A stretch of DNA of 52,803 nt, taken from assembly GCA_000934665.2 (NCBI GenBank), contig KZ537972.1:186001-238803 (forward strand), given 5' to 3'. The notes below the pieces were generated by a model. It was given only the letters and a program-made list of their open reading frames with translations, was not told where the DNA came from and did no database searches. The stretch comes from Catajapyx aquilonaris (lineage: Eukaryota). The position numbers and the translations under genes were made by a program. Positions 31,813 through 44,920 of this stretch are shown in pieces; position 1 is the first letter of the stretch, and the number at the start of each line of letters is the position of its first letter.

Positions 31813-33270
31813 AACAAATTATACTGACTGTGAGTAGTGCCCAAACATTCACTAGGATTTGCATATTTGTCAAAAACATTCAATAGTGTTAGTGCAAAAT
31901 ATTTCCAGGGAGGACCACCATATCTGATCCTTCGTAATGATTTACTGGTAACTTCATACGATAGATAGTAATTAAGGCTAAAAAAGTGGTGACGTGCAGG
32001 GTGATCGCCTGACATCAGCCCACCCCCAACTTTTCCATTCACCTGTGCTCTAATTATTCATGGAAACCATATTTCCGGTGTATGACGAACCAGGCGTACA
32101 AAATAATTTCGTTTAATTTATTCATAGGGTGGGAATCAATTGGCGCCCAGCAGTATTACCGGAAATGAAATAGAGCGAAAGGATGACGTCATCTGATCGA
32201 TCTTATAGCCATTTTTTAAAATATAATCGATTCTTTTCCAAGCAGTATCCTGCAGACCCCTTGAAAATTTGTGTCGATAAAAAGTACGGATTATAATGTA
32301 TCATTTCGTGTGACTCTAGGCGGTTGTAAAACTTTACGTCTGAGAAATTTCGGAGGGGAGTTACCATGAAAATGCGTGTTGGCTGCGAGCTTTACGAGCG
32401 TGTTAAATGTAATGGCGATTTTTTTGGGTGCAGAGGACATGCCAAATCGTTCTTTTCAAAGCGGCTTAGCCATTAAAGGCTGGGGACTCATGGGGAAGTG
32501 CAACTAAACGCTTTCCACGCTTAAGTTCTTTCCTGTGCTGTGGGTTACTATGACATGTGCTGCACTCTAGTACACAGCATGAATCCGCAACTACGTAGCA
32601 CTGATATGCGAGGTTATGAACTCAGTCAATTTTAGCACTATGATGCAATTATCTGGGGATATGTTAGAGTGCTTGACTTCAATGGGTACATACTACGTGA
32701 TCGTGTAATTGCAAATGCATGGGTACTACAGATTCGACCTTTCATGGTGATGGTATTAATGGCTGATGAAAAGTATAGCCAGGCCACTCAGTCCGCTAAT
32801 GGCTTAGTTATAATTGAATTGTGAGTGTAAATTAAGGCAGGTTAATGCATCGTACACATAGTTTACTCGACAGTGTTGTGAACCTGTTTTTAGAGTTTAA
32901 TATTTGAAATTGGTGTTAGCTGATTGCGTTAGTGTAAATTAAATTACTTGATCAGTGTTTCTGAAATCCCTGAGAATCGGTATAGAGTAGGATTATTGTG
33001 ATTTGCGATTGACATTTACATGCGAAGGAGATGATCATTTTTTATTATTATAATTGTTGTTGTTATTATTTAATTATCATCATCATTATTACAGTATTAG
33101 TGTAGTTTTGAAGCTCCCGCTTCCTTCAGTCCGTCCACTCGAACGCACCCGAGAATATATTGTGAATGGACATGAAGCGGCGGTCGGAATGACGACGAGC
33201 CTTTGAACAGCTTTGAACACCGCAAGATGGCTGCCACCTGTCTCAACTTGTTTAACCTTTGACCTTCTAT

Positions 33271-33436
33271 TTCATCCCGCAGCTTCTGGACCTGCTGTGA
33301 TTCCTCAGGTAAGGTGCGGCAGGACATGACCAGGGGCAAAGTGAAACATCTGCCAGTAATATCCTCCTGTTTTGTCCAAATGTAATTTCTTGTCGCATGC
33401 ACTTGTTGCGAGCGGATAAACCAATCAAAAGGCAAT
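33271..33436 (+). ncRNA. Candidate orphan Sm-class RNA (spliced-leader-like) or U5 3' remnant
   Basis: CAG|GTAAGG donor (33308/33309) inside a hairpin, Sm site AATTTCTTG (33384-33392) identical to U5's, 3' hairpin, and a 3' box 15/15 identical to U1's. No convincing PSE upstream. Confidence 0.3.
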
Positions 33437-34256
33437 TATCAAATAACTAAGGTCGGGAATGACCTGCGAGGGTGACAGCTCTATGCTGACCTGGCATGCG
33501 TGTCATCTGACTTGGCAATTAATCGCACATCGAGTTAGTAAGTAATTAACTTAGTTTACGATTCATTCCTTCATGTCAAGGTCACGAGCAGTGCGAAAAT
33601 CGGGCAACCCGCCACACAGCTTATTAGATTATTCCCCATATTTATGTTATTCTTTATTTTAATTCATTTCTCTGCGTGCATTTCAGGCTGAATGAGAGTA
33701 AAACATCTGTAGCCACTGATCAAGATGGTGCTCAGCCAGTCGACTCAGGTATTGTTTTATCATCATGGTTCTCCCTTCTGGAAAATTAAACTGGCCAGCA
33801 ATAATTTTGTTACATGAACAATAATTTTAGCTAGGCTATACTTATGCATTCATACGGGTTAATTCTGAATATGAAATCATAATTTCTATTGGCATCTATT
33901 TTCTTGTAGGCCTACCAGGTCTTACTTTCCCGATTTCAAACATGCCGATTGCTCAAAAACTGTGAGGGATAGAAATAATTTGCTAACATTTCATTTGAAA
34001 TCAGCGTTGTTTCCAACCTAGATTCTGCTAATAATATGATCATACAGAATGTTATTTTATTTTTCCTTGTACGTATGGCATATCTCTTCTTCCTGTAGGA
34101 CTGTAGGACTCAATCAGGACATCCCCAAAACTAGTAGGAGAAGACTCGGGGTAAGGAAAAGGACATGGCAGCGCTCATGTGGACAAGTACGCACGTGACG
34201 AGACTAACACGTTATTCGGAAGTGACGGTATTGGACGCAAATAAGTAGCAAAGGGG

Positions 34257-37221
34257 ATGGACGATTCGAAGTGTAGTCATCGCGGGTCAAGTGGAGGTGG
34301 GCCGGAAGGAGCTGGGGATGCAAGTGGGACAGACTCCTCAAGGCAGCAGCATCGTCAGATGAGGGTTTGGAAGGAGATGCTCTATTCTGCTAACTCCCTA
34401 CGTGAAGCGGGAAAATGGATCGAGGCTTTAGCATTCTACAGGACAGTGTTGGTGAAGGAGGAAAAAGTGTTAGGTTACGACCACCCGGACACTCTTCGGA
34501 CAAAGAATGACATAGCAGTGGTGCTGTGCAACCAAGACAATTACGACGAAGCCTTGCCAGTATTCAGGGAGGTTTTGGATAAGCAGGAAGAGGTGTTGGG
34601 TCATGATCATCCTGACATTCTTCAGACAAAGATGAACGTGGCCCTAGTGTTAGGTGAACAAGGACATTACGACGAAGCCTTGGGGGCATACAGGGAGGTT
34701 TTGGATAAGAGGGAAAAAGTGTTGGGTCATGACCATCCTGACACTCTTAGCACAAAGAATAACATAGCAGGAGTGCTGTTCAATCAAGGAAATTACGACG
34801 AAGCCCTGCGGGCATACAGGGAGGTTTTGGAGGAGAGGGAAAAAGTCTTGGGTCATGATCATCCGGACACTGTTAGGACAAAGAATAACATAGCAGTAGT
34901 GCTGGGCAATCAAGGAAATTACGACAAAGCCTTGCGGGCATATACATGGAGGTTTTGGAAAATATGGAAAAAGTGTTGGGTCATGACCATCCTGACACTC
35001 TTAGCACAAAGATGAACATGGCCAGCGTGTTAGATTATGACCAAGGCAAGTACGATGAAGCCCTGCGGGCATACAGGGAGGTTTTGGAGGAAAGGGAAAA
35101 AGTCTTGGGTCATGACCATCCGAACACTCTTAGGACAAAGAATGACGTAGCAGGGGTGCTGGGCAATCAAGGAAATTTCGACGAAGCCTTGCGGGCATAC
35201 AGGGAGGTTTTGGAGAAGAGGGAAAAAGTGTTGGGTCATGACCATCCTGACACTCTTAGGACAAAGAATGACATAGCAGTGGTGCTACGGAATCAAGGAA
35301 ATTACGACGAAGCCTTGCGGGCACATAGGGAGGTTTTGGATAAGAGAGAAAAAGTGTTGGGCCATGACCATCATGACACTCTTAGCACAAAGCATAACAT
35401 AGCAGTGATGCTGTGCAATCGAGGAAATTACGACGAAGCCTTGCGGACATACATGGAGGTTTTGGAGAAGAGTGGAAAAGTGGGCCATGACCATCCGGAC
35501 ACTCTTAGCACAAAGATGAACATGGCCAGCGTGTTAGATGACCAATGCAAGTGCGATGAAGCCTTGCGGAATTACAGGGAGGTTCTGGATAAGAGGGAAA
35601 AAGTGTTGGGTCATGACCATCCGGACACTATTAACACAGAGCATAACATAGCAGTGGTGCTACGGAATCAAGGAAATTACGACGAAGTCTTGCGGGCATC
35701 ATGCAGGGAGGTTTTGGATAAGAGAGAAAAAGTGTTTGGTCATGACCATTCGGGCACTCTTAGGACAAAGAATAACATGGCCAGCGGGTTAGATGACCAA
35801 TGCAAGTACGATGAAGCCTTGCGGAATTACAGGGAGGTTCTGGATAAGAGGGAAAGAGTGTTGGGCCATGACCATCCGGACACTCTTAGCACAAAGAGTA
35901 ACATAGCAGGGGTGCTGTACAAACAAGGAAATTACGACGAAGCCTTGCGGGTATGCAGGGAGGTTTTGGAGAAGATGGAAAAAGTGTTGGGCCACGACCA
36001 TCCTGACACTCTTAGCACAAAGATGAACATGGCTCTACTGTTACATGACCAAGGCAAGTACGATAAAGCCTTGCGGATTTACCGGGACGTTTTGGAAAAT
36101 AGGGAAAAAGTATTGGGTCATGACCATCCAGACACTCTTAGCACAAAGAATAACATAGCAGGGGTGCTACGCAATCAAGGAAATTACGACAAAGCCTTCC
36201 GGGGATACAGGGAGGTTCTGGAAAATATGGAAAAAGTGTTGGGTCATGACCATCCTGACACTCTTAGCACAAAGATGAACATGGCCAGCGTGTTAGATGA
36301 CCAAGGCAAGTACGATGAAGCCTTGCGGAATTACAAGGAGGTTTTGGAGAAGAGGGAAAAAGTGTTGGGTCATGACCATCCGGACACTCTTAGGACAAAG
36401 AATAACATGGCCTACTCGCTAGGGCAACAAGGGAAGCACAAGGATGCCTTTAGTGTTTACCGTTGGTTTAGTTTACCGGGACGTTTTGGAAAATAGGGAA
36501 AAAGTATTGGGTCATGACCATCCAGACACTCTTACCACAAAGAATAACATTGCAGGGGTGCTACGGAATCAAGGAAATTACGACGAGGCCTTGCGGGCAT
36601 ACAGTGAGGTTTTGGATAAGCAGGAAAAGGTGTTGGGTCAAGACCATCCTGACACTCTTAGCACAAAGAATAACATAGCAGTGGTGCTACGGAATCAAGG
36701 AAATTACGACGAGGCCTTGCGGGCATACAGTGAGGTTTTGGATAAGCAGGAAAAGATGTTGGGTCATGACCATCAGGGCACTCTTAGGACAAAGAGTAAC
36801 ATAGCAGCCTGGGTGTTGGGCAGTCAAGGAAATTACGACGAAGCCTTGCGGGCATACAGGGAGGTTTTGAATAATCAGGAAAAAGTGTTGGGTCATGACC
36901 ATCCGGACACTCTTAGCACAAAGAATGACATATCAGTGGTGCTACGGAATCAAGGACATTACGACGAAGCATTGCGGGCATACAGGAGGTTTTGAATAAG
37001 CAGGAAAAAGTGTTGGGTCATGACCATCCGGACACTCTTAGCACAAAGAATAACATAGCAGGGGTGTGTGCAAACAAGGAAATTGCGATGAAGCCTTGCG
37101 GGCATATAGGGAGGTTTTGGAGAAGAGGGAAAAAGTGTTGGGTCATGACCATCCGGACATTCTTCGCCTGAAGAGTAATATGGAAGCTGCACAAACGGGG
37201 AGTGAAAAAGGCAAATTCTGA
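34257..37221 (+). pseudogene. TPR-repeat gene (42-aa 'LGHDHPDTL' TPR_10/TPR_12 type, kinesin-light-chain/nephrocystin-3-like repeats), frameshifted
   Basis: ORFs 34257-35015, 34946-36496 and 36444-36995, plus further units ending at TGA 37219-37221, all encode the same 42-aa repeat. Frame breaks near 34945, 36465, 36985 and about 37070-37090. TPR identity is certain; pseudogene versus assembly error is unresolved. Confidence 0.8.
34460..37165 (+). repeat. 126-bp tandem repeat, about 22 units (coding TPR array)
   Basis: Recurring ggaaaaagtgttgggtcatgaccatcc(g/t)gacactcttag...ggaaattacgacgaagccttgcgggcatacagggaggttttgg at about 126-bp period; 22 G(H/Y/Q)DH motifs counted. Confidence 0.95.
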
Positions 37222-41246: not shown

Positions 41247-41507
41247 GGGAGGGTGAGTAGATTGTGGGGGTACTTGCATCGAGTATGTGTGGGTATATGT
41301 GGGTGTATGGTATGAGTACTGCACTGCACAGTCCACGTGTGAGGTATGCTGCCATACCTCATACACCACACATACTCGATCCCCACACATACGCGATCCA
41401 AGTACCCCCACGATGGGAGAGAGGCTGTCATATGTGTACTGTGCAGTGTACTGCCTCATACCCACATATGCTGGATCCAAGTACCCCCACGATCCACTCA
41501 CCCTCTC

Positions 41508-41627
41508 GCCAAGGGCCATACCACGTTGAAAGCACCGGTTCTCGTCCGATCCCCGAAGTTAAGCAACGTCGGGCCCGGGTAGTACTTGGATGGGTGACCG
41601 CCTAGGAATGCCGGGTGCACTTGGCAT
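41508..41627 (+). rRNA. 5S rRNA gene
   Basis: GCCAAGGGCCATACCACGTTGAAAGCACCGGTTCTCGTCCGATC...AGTTAAGC (box A)...GTACTTGGATGGGTGACCGCC (box C)...CTTGGCAT; 120 nt; ends pair (GCCAAG/CTTGGC); TTTT terminator 5 nt downstream. Confidence 0.96.
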
Positions 41628-41947
41628 ACTCTTTTAGTGTATCTTATTCATTTTTATTTACATGTCGCATTCATCCCCTCTCCCCCCTCCAGTCACTCAC
41701 CCTCTCCCCTCTTTTTACTGTTCCCGCCGGGAATCGATCGTCTCCTGGCAGCTTCCCGCGTACAGATGGCGCTGGCGTCGGACTCTCGTTACGCATCTTC
41801 TCCGATTTATCCCACAACAATGCGATTTAATATTGTCCATCGCACGTGTGCAAAGGTGGCCTGAGACTGCACAGCATCCGGTCCAATTACGCCCTCCCTC
41901 TTTAAATGGCCAATTAATTTGCCAGAGCCTTTCGATGGGTGTGGCTA

Positions 41948-41973
41948 AGGGGTGCGAGCTTGTCCCCTCCCGC
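41948..41973 (+). promoter_or_regulatory. snRNA proximal sequence element (U1)
   Basis: AGGGGTGCGAGCTTGTCCCCTCCCGC starting at -58; 20/26 identical to the element at -59 of U5. Confidence 0.75.
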
Positions 41974-42005
41974 CATGGAGAGCGACCGTGGGCAGCGGGA
42001 AAAGC

Positions 42006-42169
42006 ATACTTACCTGGCACGGGACATACCTTGATCACCAAGGCGGTTGTCCCAGGGCGAGGCCCTTCCATTGCACTACGGTTGGGTTGACCCCTGCGAT
42101 TATCCCAAATGTGGATAACTCGAGTGCGTTATTTCTGGTAGTGGGGGACTGCGTTCGCGCTAACCCCCG
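42006..42169 (+). ncRNA. U1 snRNA
   Basis: 5' ATACTTACCTGG, GATCACCAAGG loop (U1-70K site), CATTGCACT loop (U1A site), Sm site ATTTCTGG, terminal hairpin GGGGGACTGCGTTCGCGCTAACCCCC. Confidence 0.97.
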
Positions 42170-42175
42170 ATCAAG

Positions 42176-42190
42176 CAATCAAAAGGCAAT
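42176..42190 (+). terminator. snRNA 3' box (U1)
   Basis: CAATCAAAAGGCAAT just after U1; AATCAAAAGACAAT lies at the equivalent place after U5 (43596-43609). Confidence 0.65.
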
Positions 42191-42489
42191 ATTGAATAAT
42201 TGTAGGACGAAGGTCCTGATCACCTGATGATTTGAGACGAAGTGAAGCCAGTGATGCCGACTGATGCCGATGCCAATGTGCGGGTATTTACTATTTACCC
42301 ATTTCTGGTATTTCGGTTTTCGGAGTATTCGGACGCTTGCGGGCGGGTAAAATCGGGTATTTTCTGGTAATGGTTAATTTTATTGGTGTTTAAAACTCCG
42401 ACGCTTGACCACTGACCAGCCCCCGGACACTACCCCAACAGTCTGCGCATTATCACCTGCCGAGGCATTTTCATTCCTATGCAATATCG

Positions 42490-42860
42490 GGCAAGGAACA
42501 GTAACAAACTATGAAACTAGCAGTTATTCCATGTTTTCATAGGTGATGGCCGGCGGCGCCTGTCAACCAAAATATATCTTAATAAACTGAACATGACCTT
42601 TCGGTTTCGACGTCACAGGAAGTAACAGGATCATACTTGAAAAGTGAGATGTCTTCTACTGCCAGTTCATACTGCATGGCTTCTTCGCCGTTCGCATGTT
42701 GAAGAAAGAGAGCCTTGAACGGAAAACTATCAAAAATCGCGCAGAACGGCGTCAAAAAGGTGCTAATAGGTGCTAATATGCCATTTAGGTTCCAACGCCC
42801 GAAATAATTATGCAATTTTAGGTTCTATAAAACTGCGATTTTTGAGGTCCTTGTGTTATG
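42490..42860 (-). mobile_element. hAT-like transposase C-terminal relic between U1 and U5
   Basis: DISLFKYDPVTSCDVETERSCSVY resembles the FKYAPxTSCDVERSFS dimerisation motif; frame is broken. Confidence 0.65.
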
Positions 42861-43412
42861 AAACGGTTAGATACGTATTTCGGTTGCGGTGTTCTGCCTG
42901 CAAAATAAAAAGTAGGTGAAAACTTCGAAATTCGTTCTCTAAGCAGAATGAAATATTTGCGAAATAGTGCAGTGTCGACAGAGGCCAGACGGATGCATGG
43001 TCTGAATACGCGTACAAATGAAATGGTTTGTCTCCTTTGGGCTGTATGCAGCTATGCTATAGGTAAGCTCCTGAAGTGGCTCTTGAGTGCCTCTACTGCC
43101 TCACGGGTAATTTTCCACTTGCTTCGTGCAACGACCCATTGCATTCACTCGTCCGATAGTTTTGTTCTGCCCGCCATTTCTGCCTCCGCCACCTAGTGGC
43201 CAGGTATAGACTTTGGCCCGCCACCTCAGTGTGGGGACAGCCAACTATTCGGGCAAAATTGCACATTTGCAATTGTTTTCGGCTTCTCATTCAAATTTAG
43301 GCATTTTAAAATTAACAGATGGAAAGAGATACGACTCTTGTTGGATGAAGCATCCATGGTTTTACACTCAATATGTGATGAAAATGTCTACGATGATTCA
43401 TATCGCGCGTTG

Positions 43413-43438
43413 AGGGGATCGAGCACGTCCAGTCCCGC
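43413..43438 (+). promoter_or_regulatory. snRNA proximal sequence element (U5)
   Basis: AGGGGATCGAGCACGTCCAGTCCCGC starting at -59; matches the U1 element in sequence and position. Confidence 0.75.
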
Positions 43439-43471
43439 GTAGGTCTGGGCGCCTGTTGCGAGCTGAAATTC

Positions 43472-43588
43472 ATACTCTGGTTCCTCTTCAATCCTCGTGT
43501 AAATCTTTCGCCTTTTACTAAAGATTTCCGTGGAGAGGTACACTCTGAGTCTTATGTAATTTCTTGTCGCCTGCCTGCAGCAGGCGGA
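43472..43588 (+). ncRNA. U5 snRNA
   Basis: 5' ATACTCTGGTTCCTCTTCA, invariant loop I in AAATCTTTCGCCTTTTACTAAAGATTT, CCGTGGAGAGG, Sm site AATTTCTTG, 3' hairpin CGCCTGC/GCAGGCG. Confidence 0.96.
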
Positions 43589-44920
43589 TAAACCAAATCA
43601 AAAGACAATACTCAATACTGAAACTATCCCGGTCACCTGGCGACCAGGGATTGCAGCTGTAAGCTGACATGATATGCGTCATGCGTGTCACCTAATTTGT
43701 CAGCTAATCAGGACATCCAGTTAGTAATTAGTTCAGTGGAAAAAAAAACAACTTCGAGCGAAAGGATTAAGGATCCCTTCCAGGTATCCAGGATTGATTT
43801 TGCAGTGCCAAAGTTGCAGATTTTAAAGACGTCTGCAGCAGAACTGATTAAGTGAAAAGTAATACTGCATAGATTACGCAGGGACAAAGCTGTGGCTGTA
43901 AAGGCATGAGCAATTCCACCTGCAGACTTGAGGTGAGGAAATGAAGGGAATGATGTCATTTTATTGCTGTCAGGTAATTCTCGCACTATAGTCACCATTG
44001 CACAAGAGCAAACACTCAAATCCATGCAAATGCATTGAGACCTTGATGTTCCTCATGATGCTGACCTACTGTACATAATGTCCCATTATGGGCATCCTCC
44101 TCTGGCAACAACAGACCTGAAGATTACTGCTGCTTACAGTATTAAACGCTATGTCTAGGAGAAAATGTAATATGGAAGAACAATTTACTCTCACTCATCT
44201 TCCCGGCAATTATTGTCTTATAGCCAGATAGCCTACTTGATCCACCTAGATTACTCTTTATCTCTCGATCGATACACTGGAATTTATTCAGCATAATAGT
44301 TTTGCAAGAGATTGTATTTTTATTCATATTTTCGACAAATTGGTTATAAGAGGCTTTATTGCACCAAATAATAACTATTTCTACTCTCAATATTATGTGA
44401 GATATGCGAGATATGTAGCTGTAACATCTGTACACAGACAAGACCTTTCTCCCATGATTTTACAATGTTACCACTGAACCTAAGGAATGCATATAGTGCC
44501 TACACTGCAGGAGAAAAAATTAATTTCCATATTGGACTTAGCGACTTCTGGCTTGCAGAAATTTGAATGTTATTTTTTTAAATGTTAAAATGATATACCA
44601 GCAGCTGGGCGCAAGTCAACTCTTCAGGCCTCTATAGAGATGTTGTGTGAAATGAGCTGTAAAATGACTTCACTCGCTTAAATTATGCAAAGTAGTATGG
44701 AAGACCAGCAACTCAATCAGAACTACGAGTATGTTATGTCGTGTAAGAAGAAGAAAATCCAGGGCAATAAACACAAAATTGCAGTGAAATAGGTGGTTTG
44801 GCCTCTGTTGGATCTTTATTGTTATATTTTTTGTCACTAGTTTTTGACCAGCTCATTGATGAGTATATAGCGGGGTTTCACATGAAATATTGCCATTTCA
44901 CCTGTTGCACAATAATTAAT

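Follow-up and report, generated by a model that had tools for sequence, protein, structure and literature searches.

The candidate RNA locus at positions 33271 to 33436 of the window, the 52,803-nucleotide stretch of Catajapyx aquilonaris contig KZ537972.1 analyzed here, is most likely an ordinary patchwork, in which the tail of a U5 gene is flanked by an unrelated splice site on one side and by a damaged protein-coding gene copy on the other. A preliminary description had presented the locus as a candidate Sm-site RNA with the layout of a spliced-leader (SL) RNA. All of the motifs on which that proposal was based are real, but they come from different sources; the observation was partly confirmed, and its interpretation is partly supported. 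We consider the locus to be probably a mosaic relic with a cis-type donor rather than an RNA gene. The three-part composition of the locus and the U5 origin of its 3′ block are shown at the level of DNA sequence, and the features concerned are as follows.

33095..33379 (+), single-copy donor-bearing stretch, promoter- or first-exon-like (self-match only)
33123..33140 (+), best nearby PSE-like site, weak (PWM 10.3), implying a start near 33177 and an RNA of ~240 nt
33223..33239 (no strand assigned), overlapping AGATGGC and GCCACCT cores, over ATG 33227 (sequence)
33277..33319 (+), proposed stem I enclosing the donor (MFE −16.1, z −0.93; 86/500 shuffles as stable)
33306..33314 (+), predicted near-consensus 5′ splice site CAG/GTAAGG, 378 nt upstream of an orphaned acceptor
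33320..33369 (+), proposed stem II (z +0.07, chance level)
33380..33415 (+), U5 3′ end, with Sm site 33384-33392 and terminal hairpin 33393-33414 (U5 genome matches)
33422..33436 (+), snRNA 3′ box, inherited with the U5 piece (14-mer match behind known snRNA genes)
33437..33547 (+), U5 downstream flank past the box (33476-33547 aligns to the flank of the window's U5)
33621..33748 (+), 3′ part of the intron, acceptor, and exon (33687-33748) of an ankyrin-TPR copy (paralogue homology starts at 33622-33650)
34100..37220 (+), TPR exon of the 5′-truncated copy, a pseudogene (stop at 34242, several frame breaks)
43472..43587 (+), intact U5 gene, closest relative of the fragment's flank (Rfam 83.1 bits)

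Sources of the three parts

The motifs named in the preliminary description were each located: the donor, with its GT at 33309; CCGCA (33277), ACCTG (33290), and TGCGG (33315); CAGGA (33320), GGCA (33335), TGCC (33351), and TCCTG (33365); and TCGCA (33393) with TGCGA (33407). The Sm-like site at 33384-33392 is identical to the Sm site of the window's U5 gene, and the 15-mer at 33422-33436, which has two exact matches in the window, is the box found behind the window's U1. An Rfam search with 33271-33436 returned no covering family, either at gathering or at E ≤ 10. The 5′ part had been described as resembling none of U1, U2, U4, U5, U11, U12, or U4atac, and it indeed showed no likeness to U1, U2, U4, U5, U6, U11, U12, U4atac, or 5S of the same genome in either orientation; the scores of the best two of 20 such tests were reached by 7/300 and 15/300 shuffles. 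Against U5, with its invariant loop 1 and 5′ stem, the 5′ part scored at chance (269/1000 shuffles reached the score).

Homology from 33380 onward bears out, at the DNA level, the suggestion that the candidate was born from a U5 3′ end. A DNA search of the organism's own genome, in which only the best candidates were scored, gave nine non-self matches, each beginning at 33380 and each a U5 gene (one being the window's own U5), and a profile of 11 U5 loci matched the candidate only from this position. A diverged whole U5 gene was rejected on the basis of this boundary and the chance-level score of the 5′ part. Positions 33380-33547 are a copy of the 3′ end of a U5 gene with ~110 nt of flank past the 3′ box, and the nearest relative is the U5 gene 10 kb away. 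Alignment of 33476-33547 with the flank of the U5 at 43472 gave a score of 54, which was reached by 0/1000 shuffles; a few other U5 flanks scored 27 to 29 against the candidate flank and the rest scored 22 or less, the window flank being shortened in that comparison. This likeness beyond the box had been missed earlier. Because it runs past the 3′ box, the Sm site, third hairpin, and box must have been inherited together as DNA, and copying of the U5 3′ end accounts for all three.

The copied block has decayed. Its terminal hairpin is weakened (−8.1 versus −13.5 kcal/mol in U5) and carries an A-A mismatch. The U5-constrained part differs by 6 substitutions in 55 aligned positions plus 3 gaps, and the flank differs by 13 substitutions in 72 positions, split over two lineages (both counts by eye), so that no slowdown of substitution is apparent. 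Partial gene homology, nontranscribed flank, and decay thus occur together, as in a truncated U5 copy. Counting against a relic, all 17 of 17 positions around the Sm site are intact, and the box is off by just one U1-type base and one indel. The differences concentrate in the hairpin and spare the Sm site and box (hypergeometric p of 0.05 to 0.14 for 7 to 9 differences, a biased value because the site was found via these motifs). Sm-class features are present at the locus, namely, an Sm site followed by a 3′ hairpin (33384-33414, weakened) and a 3′ box. The GGTC..GACC palindrome at 33451-33464 is also intact; genome-wide, such a palindrome lies 2 to 37 nt past the box at 10/58 box sites versus 28/865 background windows.

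Truncated snRNA pseudogenes are the nearest known counterparts, together with Drosophila snRNA:LU should the case be novel. Like U5 snRNA (RF00020) and DNA-mediated truncated snRNA pseudogenes, the candidate has a Sm site, terminal hairpin, 3′ box, and flank of U5 descent; unlike U5, it is without a promoter, 5′ stem, invariant loop 1, or Rfam U5 match, and its hairpin is weakened.

Downstream, from ~33621, the window matches an ankyrin-TPR gene family at 71 to 91%. It had been remarked earlier that the donor could simply serve the TPR acceptor in cis, and this fits well: 33686/7 is a real, conserved acceptor that has no native upstream exon. In the paralogues, the equivalent acceptor is served by a coding exon ~350 nt upstream, which is mostly ankyrin encoding (by eye); in the window, the candidate and the U5 block occupy the place of that exon and most of the intron. 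Exon 33687-33748 is out of frame, with 62 nt compared to 55, 58, or 61 nt in 7/7 paralogues examined. For the TPR exon, four paralogues keep open frames of 440 to 736 aa and a fifth (L120) is also broken. The downstream copy is a headless, broken pseudogene. Since the donor sits 378 nt before the orphaned acceptor, cis splicing would be its simple use.

We propose that DNA rearrangement, in one or more steps, joined the last ~36 nt of U5, the 3′ box, and a flank of 110 nt or more to a unique promoter- or first-exon-like stretch on one side and to a headless ankyrin-TPR copy on the other. The U5 piece has decayed since then, at a roughly neutral rate. Should Pol II read through from the stretch at 33.1 to 33.25 kb, U1 would take CAG/GTAAGG, and cis splicing from 33308 to 33687 would discard the Sm site and 3′ box with the intron, leaving a noncoding or NMD-type pseudogene transcript. 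Processing at a 3′ box depends on an snRNA promoter, and because of this coupling the box is expected to be inert here. A relic would have little import beyond snRNA gene turnover; it would serve as a warning that a donor, Sm site, hairpin, and 3′ box can be brought together by rearrangement.

The window's 5S (41508-41626), U1 (42006-42169), and U5 genes are linked within 2.1 kb (41508-43609). Several contigs have similar groupings of 5S, U1, and U5, whose orientations differ. Directly upstream of the window's 5S gene, at ~41250-41500, a long imperfect inverted repeat was noted by eye. The minus strand carries a DENN-domain gene (19.5 to 29.7 kb), presumably MADD-like, as well as a nuclear receptor (44.9 to 46.7 kb) and a tyrosine phosphatase (~50 kb).

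Copy number, folding, and promoter of the donor-bearing part

A DNA search of the genome with 33095-33379 recovered only the stretch itself, and comparisons with snRNA genes and orphan loci gave no homology. The short frame from ATG 33227, used in a protein search of the same genome for a parent gene, likewise matched only itself, at the low sensitivity afforded by 27 aa. No source was found in the genome searches for 33095-33379 or for 33548-33620, which counts against a mosaic. Genomic copies of the candidate had been suggested as a check: a 20-mer of the proposed exon is present once, with two 2-mismatch matches (control, 1), both without GT or Sm context. In a metagenome scan, in which records of the organism itself were possibly not included, the exon 20-mer had 0 matches and a 17-mer of the Sm region had 44, with 0/44 accompanied by the U5 loop or box. 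An inverted U1 5′ end was rejected as the source of the donor (205/300 and 97/300 shuffles reached the score), and an 11-mer in common with one U1 promoter and a 16-mer in common with a repeat were attributed to chance. The candidate was also rejected as a missing minor snRNA; U4atac, U11 (two), U12, and U6 occur elsewhere in the genome above the Rfam cutoff.

The SL-like stems can be folded where they had been placed, but no better than shuffled sequences. For the whole candidate, z values of −0.13 and +0.15 were obtained, compared to −3.34 for U5 and −2.07 for U1 in the same test, and stem III gave −1.14. Within the sequence examined, the GT is paired in 55% of 55 distinct donor-like sites, and at 3/55, the candidate among them, the donor is as fully paired and as well folded. 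When donor-like sites were matched for GC, 3/10 folded as well as the candidate. Shuffled sequences folded better than the ~240-nt RNA implied by the PSE-like site at 33123 (z +1.1). One of 15 segments tested, 80 nt long (33100-33179), contains an inverted repeat, overlaps the PSE-like site, and gave a z of −2.78 (0/100 shuffles). A Pol III reading (PSE-like site, AT-rich box, and stop at the T run 33369-33372) was rejected at z +0.39; the U6 promoter offered no template for comparison.

Promoter slots, at the PSE position ~55 nt ahead of the start, were scored with a PSE matrix (PWM) built from 15 promoters. The slot for a start at 33274 scored −0.2, below 13/15 known promoters, and 25% of background slots reached this value. 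Ten of the 15 true promoters scored between 10.5 and 19.5; the test is leaky, because both U2 promoters and those of U4atac, one U4, and U12 score below 7. Of 229 background slots, among them the true U1 and U5 sites of the window, 4.4% scored at least as high as the 10.3 of the site at 33123-33140. A distal motif lies 234 to 311 nt upstream in 13/19 snRNA promoters versus 17/160 background cases; none was found for starts at 33274 and ~33177, as is also the case for 6/19 known snRNA promoters. The cores at 33223-33239, which we take to be YY1/CTCF-like, are too close to serve as the distal element.

Rival readings of the locus

An expressed orphan Sm-class RNA of the Like-U type, 140 to 240 nt long and relying on the Sm site, hairpin, and 3′ box captured from U5, is an unlikely explanation. 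Its promoter, new or diverged, would be the PSE-like site at 33123 (start at ~33177) or an unrecognized one for 33274; the U5 parts would serve Sm-ring assembly and Integrator cleavage, and the exposed donor could act as a U1 decoy. Such an RNA is consistent with the intact Sm site, box, and downstream palindrome, with the base context of 33271-33276, which resembles a U5 start, with the PSE-like score of 10.3, and with a comparable five-locus orphan family in the genome. A precedent is Drosophila snRNA:LU (CR43708), which, in the available text of its description (PMC4053861), is like the candidate in its orphan body, Sm site, 3′ stem-loop, and nearby U5 gene; unlike the candidate, which is known from sequence alone, LU has PSEA and PSEB, stems that covary in nine species, and TMG and Sm-IP evidence. 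No structure signal was obtained at any boundary tried (z −0.13, +0.15, +1.10, and +0.39), and the weakened hairpin, the missing distal motif, and the neutral-level substitution count also argue against a functional RNA, as do its single copy and its dissimilarity to the other orphans (15 loci by three scoring schemes; best, 9/300). It is still more doubtful that the locus encodes a young expressed Sm-class RNA, formed when a U5 tail was grafted to a donor-bearing 5′ piece unrelated to it, as one of a genome-wide set of orphan snRNA-type genes that retain their promoters and 3′ ends but exchange their bodies (two five-locus families). SL RNAs have been proposed, in the portion of PMC3342872 available, to derive from spliceosomal RNAs. 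A young grafted Sm RNA would, if true, be a snapshot of that proposed origin from spliceosomal snRNAs, and the candidate, if expressed and Sm bound, would be a test case for SL RNA birth. That nothing is transcribed or spliced at the locus and that the 5′ part is inert captured DNA, such as a dead first coding exon or a 26-nt exon (33283-33308) that had an acceptor of its own upstream, appears very unlikely to us. A branch-like site, pyrimidine tract, and CAG do precede 33283, and a single stop interrupts the frame between ATG 33227 and the donor; against this, the DNA and protein searches yielded no parent, and no strong plus-strand donor was seen upstream by eye.

The original proposal of an SL RNA, which would give an exon of ~35 nt (33274-33308) in trans, is now highly improbable. 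Like SL RNAs (Rfam SL1/SL2; features as in the available description of SLIDR, PMC7986045), the candidate is ~140 nt long and has a donor, Sm-like site, and 3′ hairpin in SL order, with the donor placed right after a short exon. In favor of this reading, a box follows the hairpin, the MFE fold pairs the donor, and the same text (PMC7986045) reports SL trans-splicing for copepods and amphipods. Unlike SL RNAs, the candidate is single copy, with no leader-bearing copies elsewhere and with near matches of the exon 20-mer that have no GT or Sm context. Its gap of 73 nt between donor and Sm site exceeds the 20 to 60 nt given as the SLIDR default in the available text (PMC7986045), it has no folding signal and no recognizable PSE at the implied start, a donor in a hairpin is common among donor-like sites, the exon end does not resemble four Parhyale leaders (by eye; PMC5111886), and a natural cis acceptor is close, 378 nt downstream. 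Multiple copies are not an absolute requirement, because some nematode SL variants are encoded by one to three genes each according to the same partial source (PMC7986045). A telomerase RNA under an snRNA-type promoter is scarcely credible. Insect telomerase RNAs use snRNA-type promoters in the text available (PMC11892584, PMC13023368), and the candidate can be read as a 135- to 240-nt RNA behind a PSE-like site, with TAACCT at 33253; however, the template-like match to TTAGG is just 6 nt, at chance level (TTAGG may not be the repeat of the host), there is no folding signal, and a Sm-site 3′ end is not mentioned for insect telomerase RNAs in the available portions of these reports (PMC11892584, PMC13023368). 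In the literature searched (mostly open-access, main texts), we found no matching arthropod orphan Sm RNA and no matching crustacean SL RNA gene structure.

Box sites and orphan genes elsewhere in the genome

The exact box 14-mer occurs 58 times in the genome (reversed control, 7). In 25/58 cases, it lies behind recognizable snRNA genes (11 U5, 9 U1, 2 U2, 2 U4, and 1 U12), one of the nine U1 matches (L103) being 5′ truncated. Twelve of the other 33 sites have nothing recognizable, and the remaining 21 include the candidate, L079, two U2 tails, a diverged U1, and small orphan-gene families. The relic reading preferred here is supported by 5′-truncated snRNA tails with a box at other loci, namely, L079 (U5, with a dead Sm site), L076 and L088 (U2), and L103 (U1). 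Counting against it, apparent orphan Sm-site genes with variable bodies elsewhere in the genome raise the prior for an orphan gene at this position.

L079/L018 (G000 C691, ~74448-74500, minus strand) is a second orphan U5 tail, located directly behind a 5S gene and with its Sm site destroyed; its hairpin is closer to that of the candidate than the U5 hairpin is. At L021/L003 (G000 C20, ~127400-127560), an intact U5 body is joined exactly at its start site to a U1-type promoter. Elements ending in (AACC)n coincide with or closely adjoin the starts of genes for U1, U5, and orphan snRNA-type RNAs (L092, L102, L104, L108, L109, L094, and L010/L025), and a 3′ segment of U2 is part of one element type. 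The pattern resembles targeted insertion at snRNA start sites; studies of snRNA-targeting elements have reportedly been published. The only U4atac found, L056 (G000 C53:88244-88360, minus strand), is without the usual PSE, distal motif, and 3′ box. As the truncated tails, the L021 fusion, and the start-site insertions show, shuffled snRNA gene pieces are common in this genome. Such shuffling cuts both ways, making a relic ordinary and pointing to the possible existence of orphan Sm-site genes with variable bodies.

One family of five loci (L092, L099, L102, L106, and L108; G000 C2776, C4843, C6977, C9828, and C12270) has no Rfam match. Its members have in common a 3′ end composed of the Sm site AATTTTTGG, a CCGG hairpin, which is kept, a 3′ box, and flank, and their bodies are variable, at 80 to 100 nt. 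The promoter, with a PSE-like site, is 92 to 100% identical over 240 nt in the three loci examined for it, and the distal motif is present at −240 in L099. L099, L102, and L106 have CAG/GT ~16 nt before the Sm site, after a pyrimidine-rich, exon-like piece of ~33 to 36 nt, and in L108 a GT lies inside a perfect hairpin. Several copies, a common promoter, the distal motif, and a kept hairpin set this family apart from the candidate. No relationship between the candidate and this family was detectable, and a by-eye resemblance to L099 and L106 was not significant. These five loci are better candidates for an orphan Sm RNA or SL RNA than 33271-33436 and are the better object for the question of SL RNA birth. 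L175 contains a further promoter piece.

Another five loci (L068, L069, L073, L091, and L104) have in common a promoter-like region of ~230 nt (72 to 100%) and a 3′ box with flank, around hypervariable bodies of ~50 to 60 nt without a Sm site; two of them are on C155, oppositely oriented and separated by 2.8 kb. Two smaller groups (L089, L107, and L109; L098, L101, and L072) each have a common GC-rich 3′ hairpin and a 3′ box behind unrelated 5′ parts, and L098 and L101 carry, by eye, a Sm site and a U1-like hairpin.
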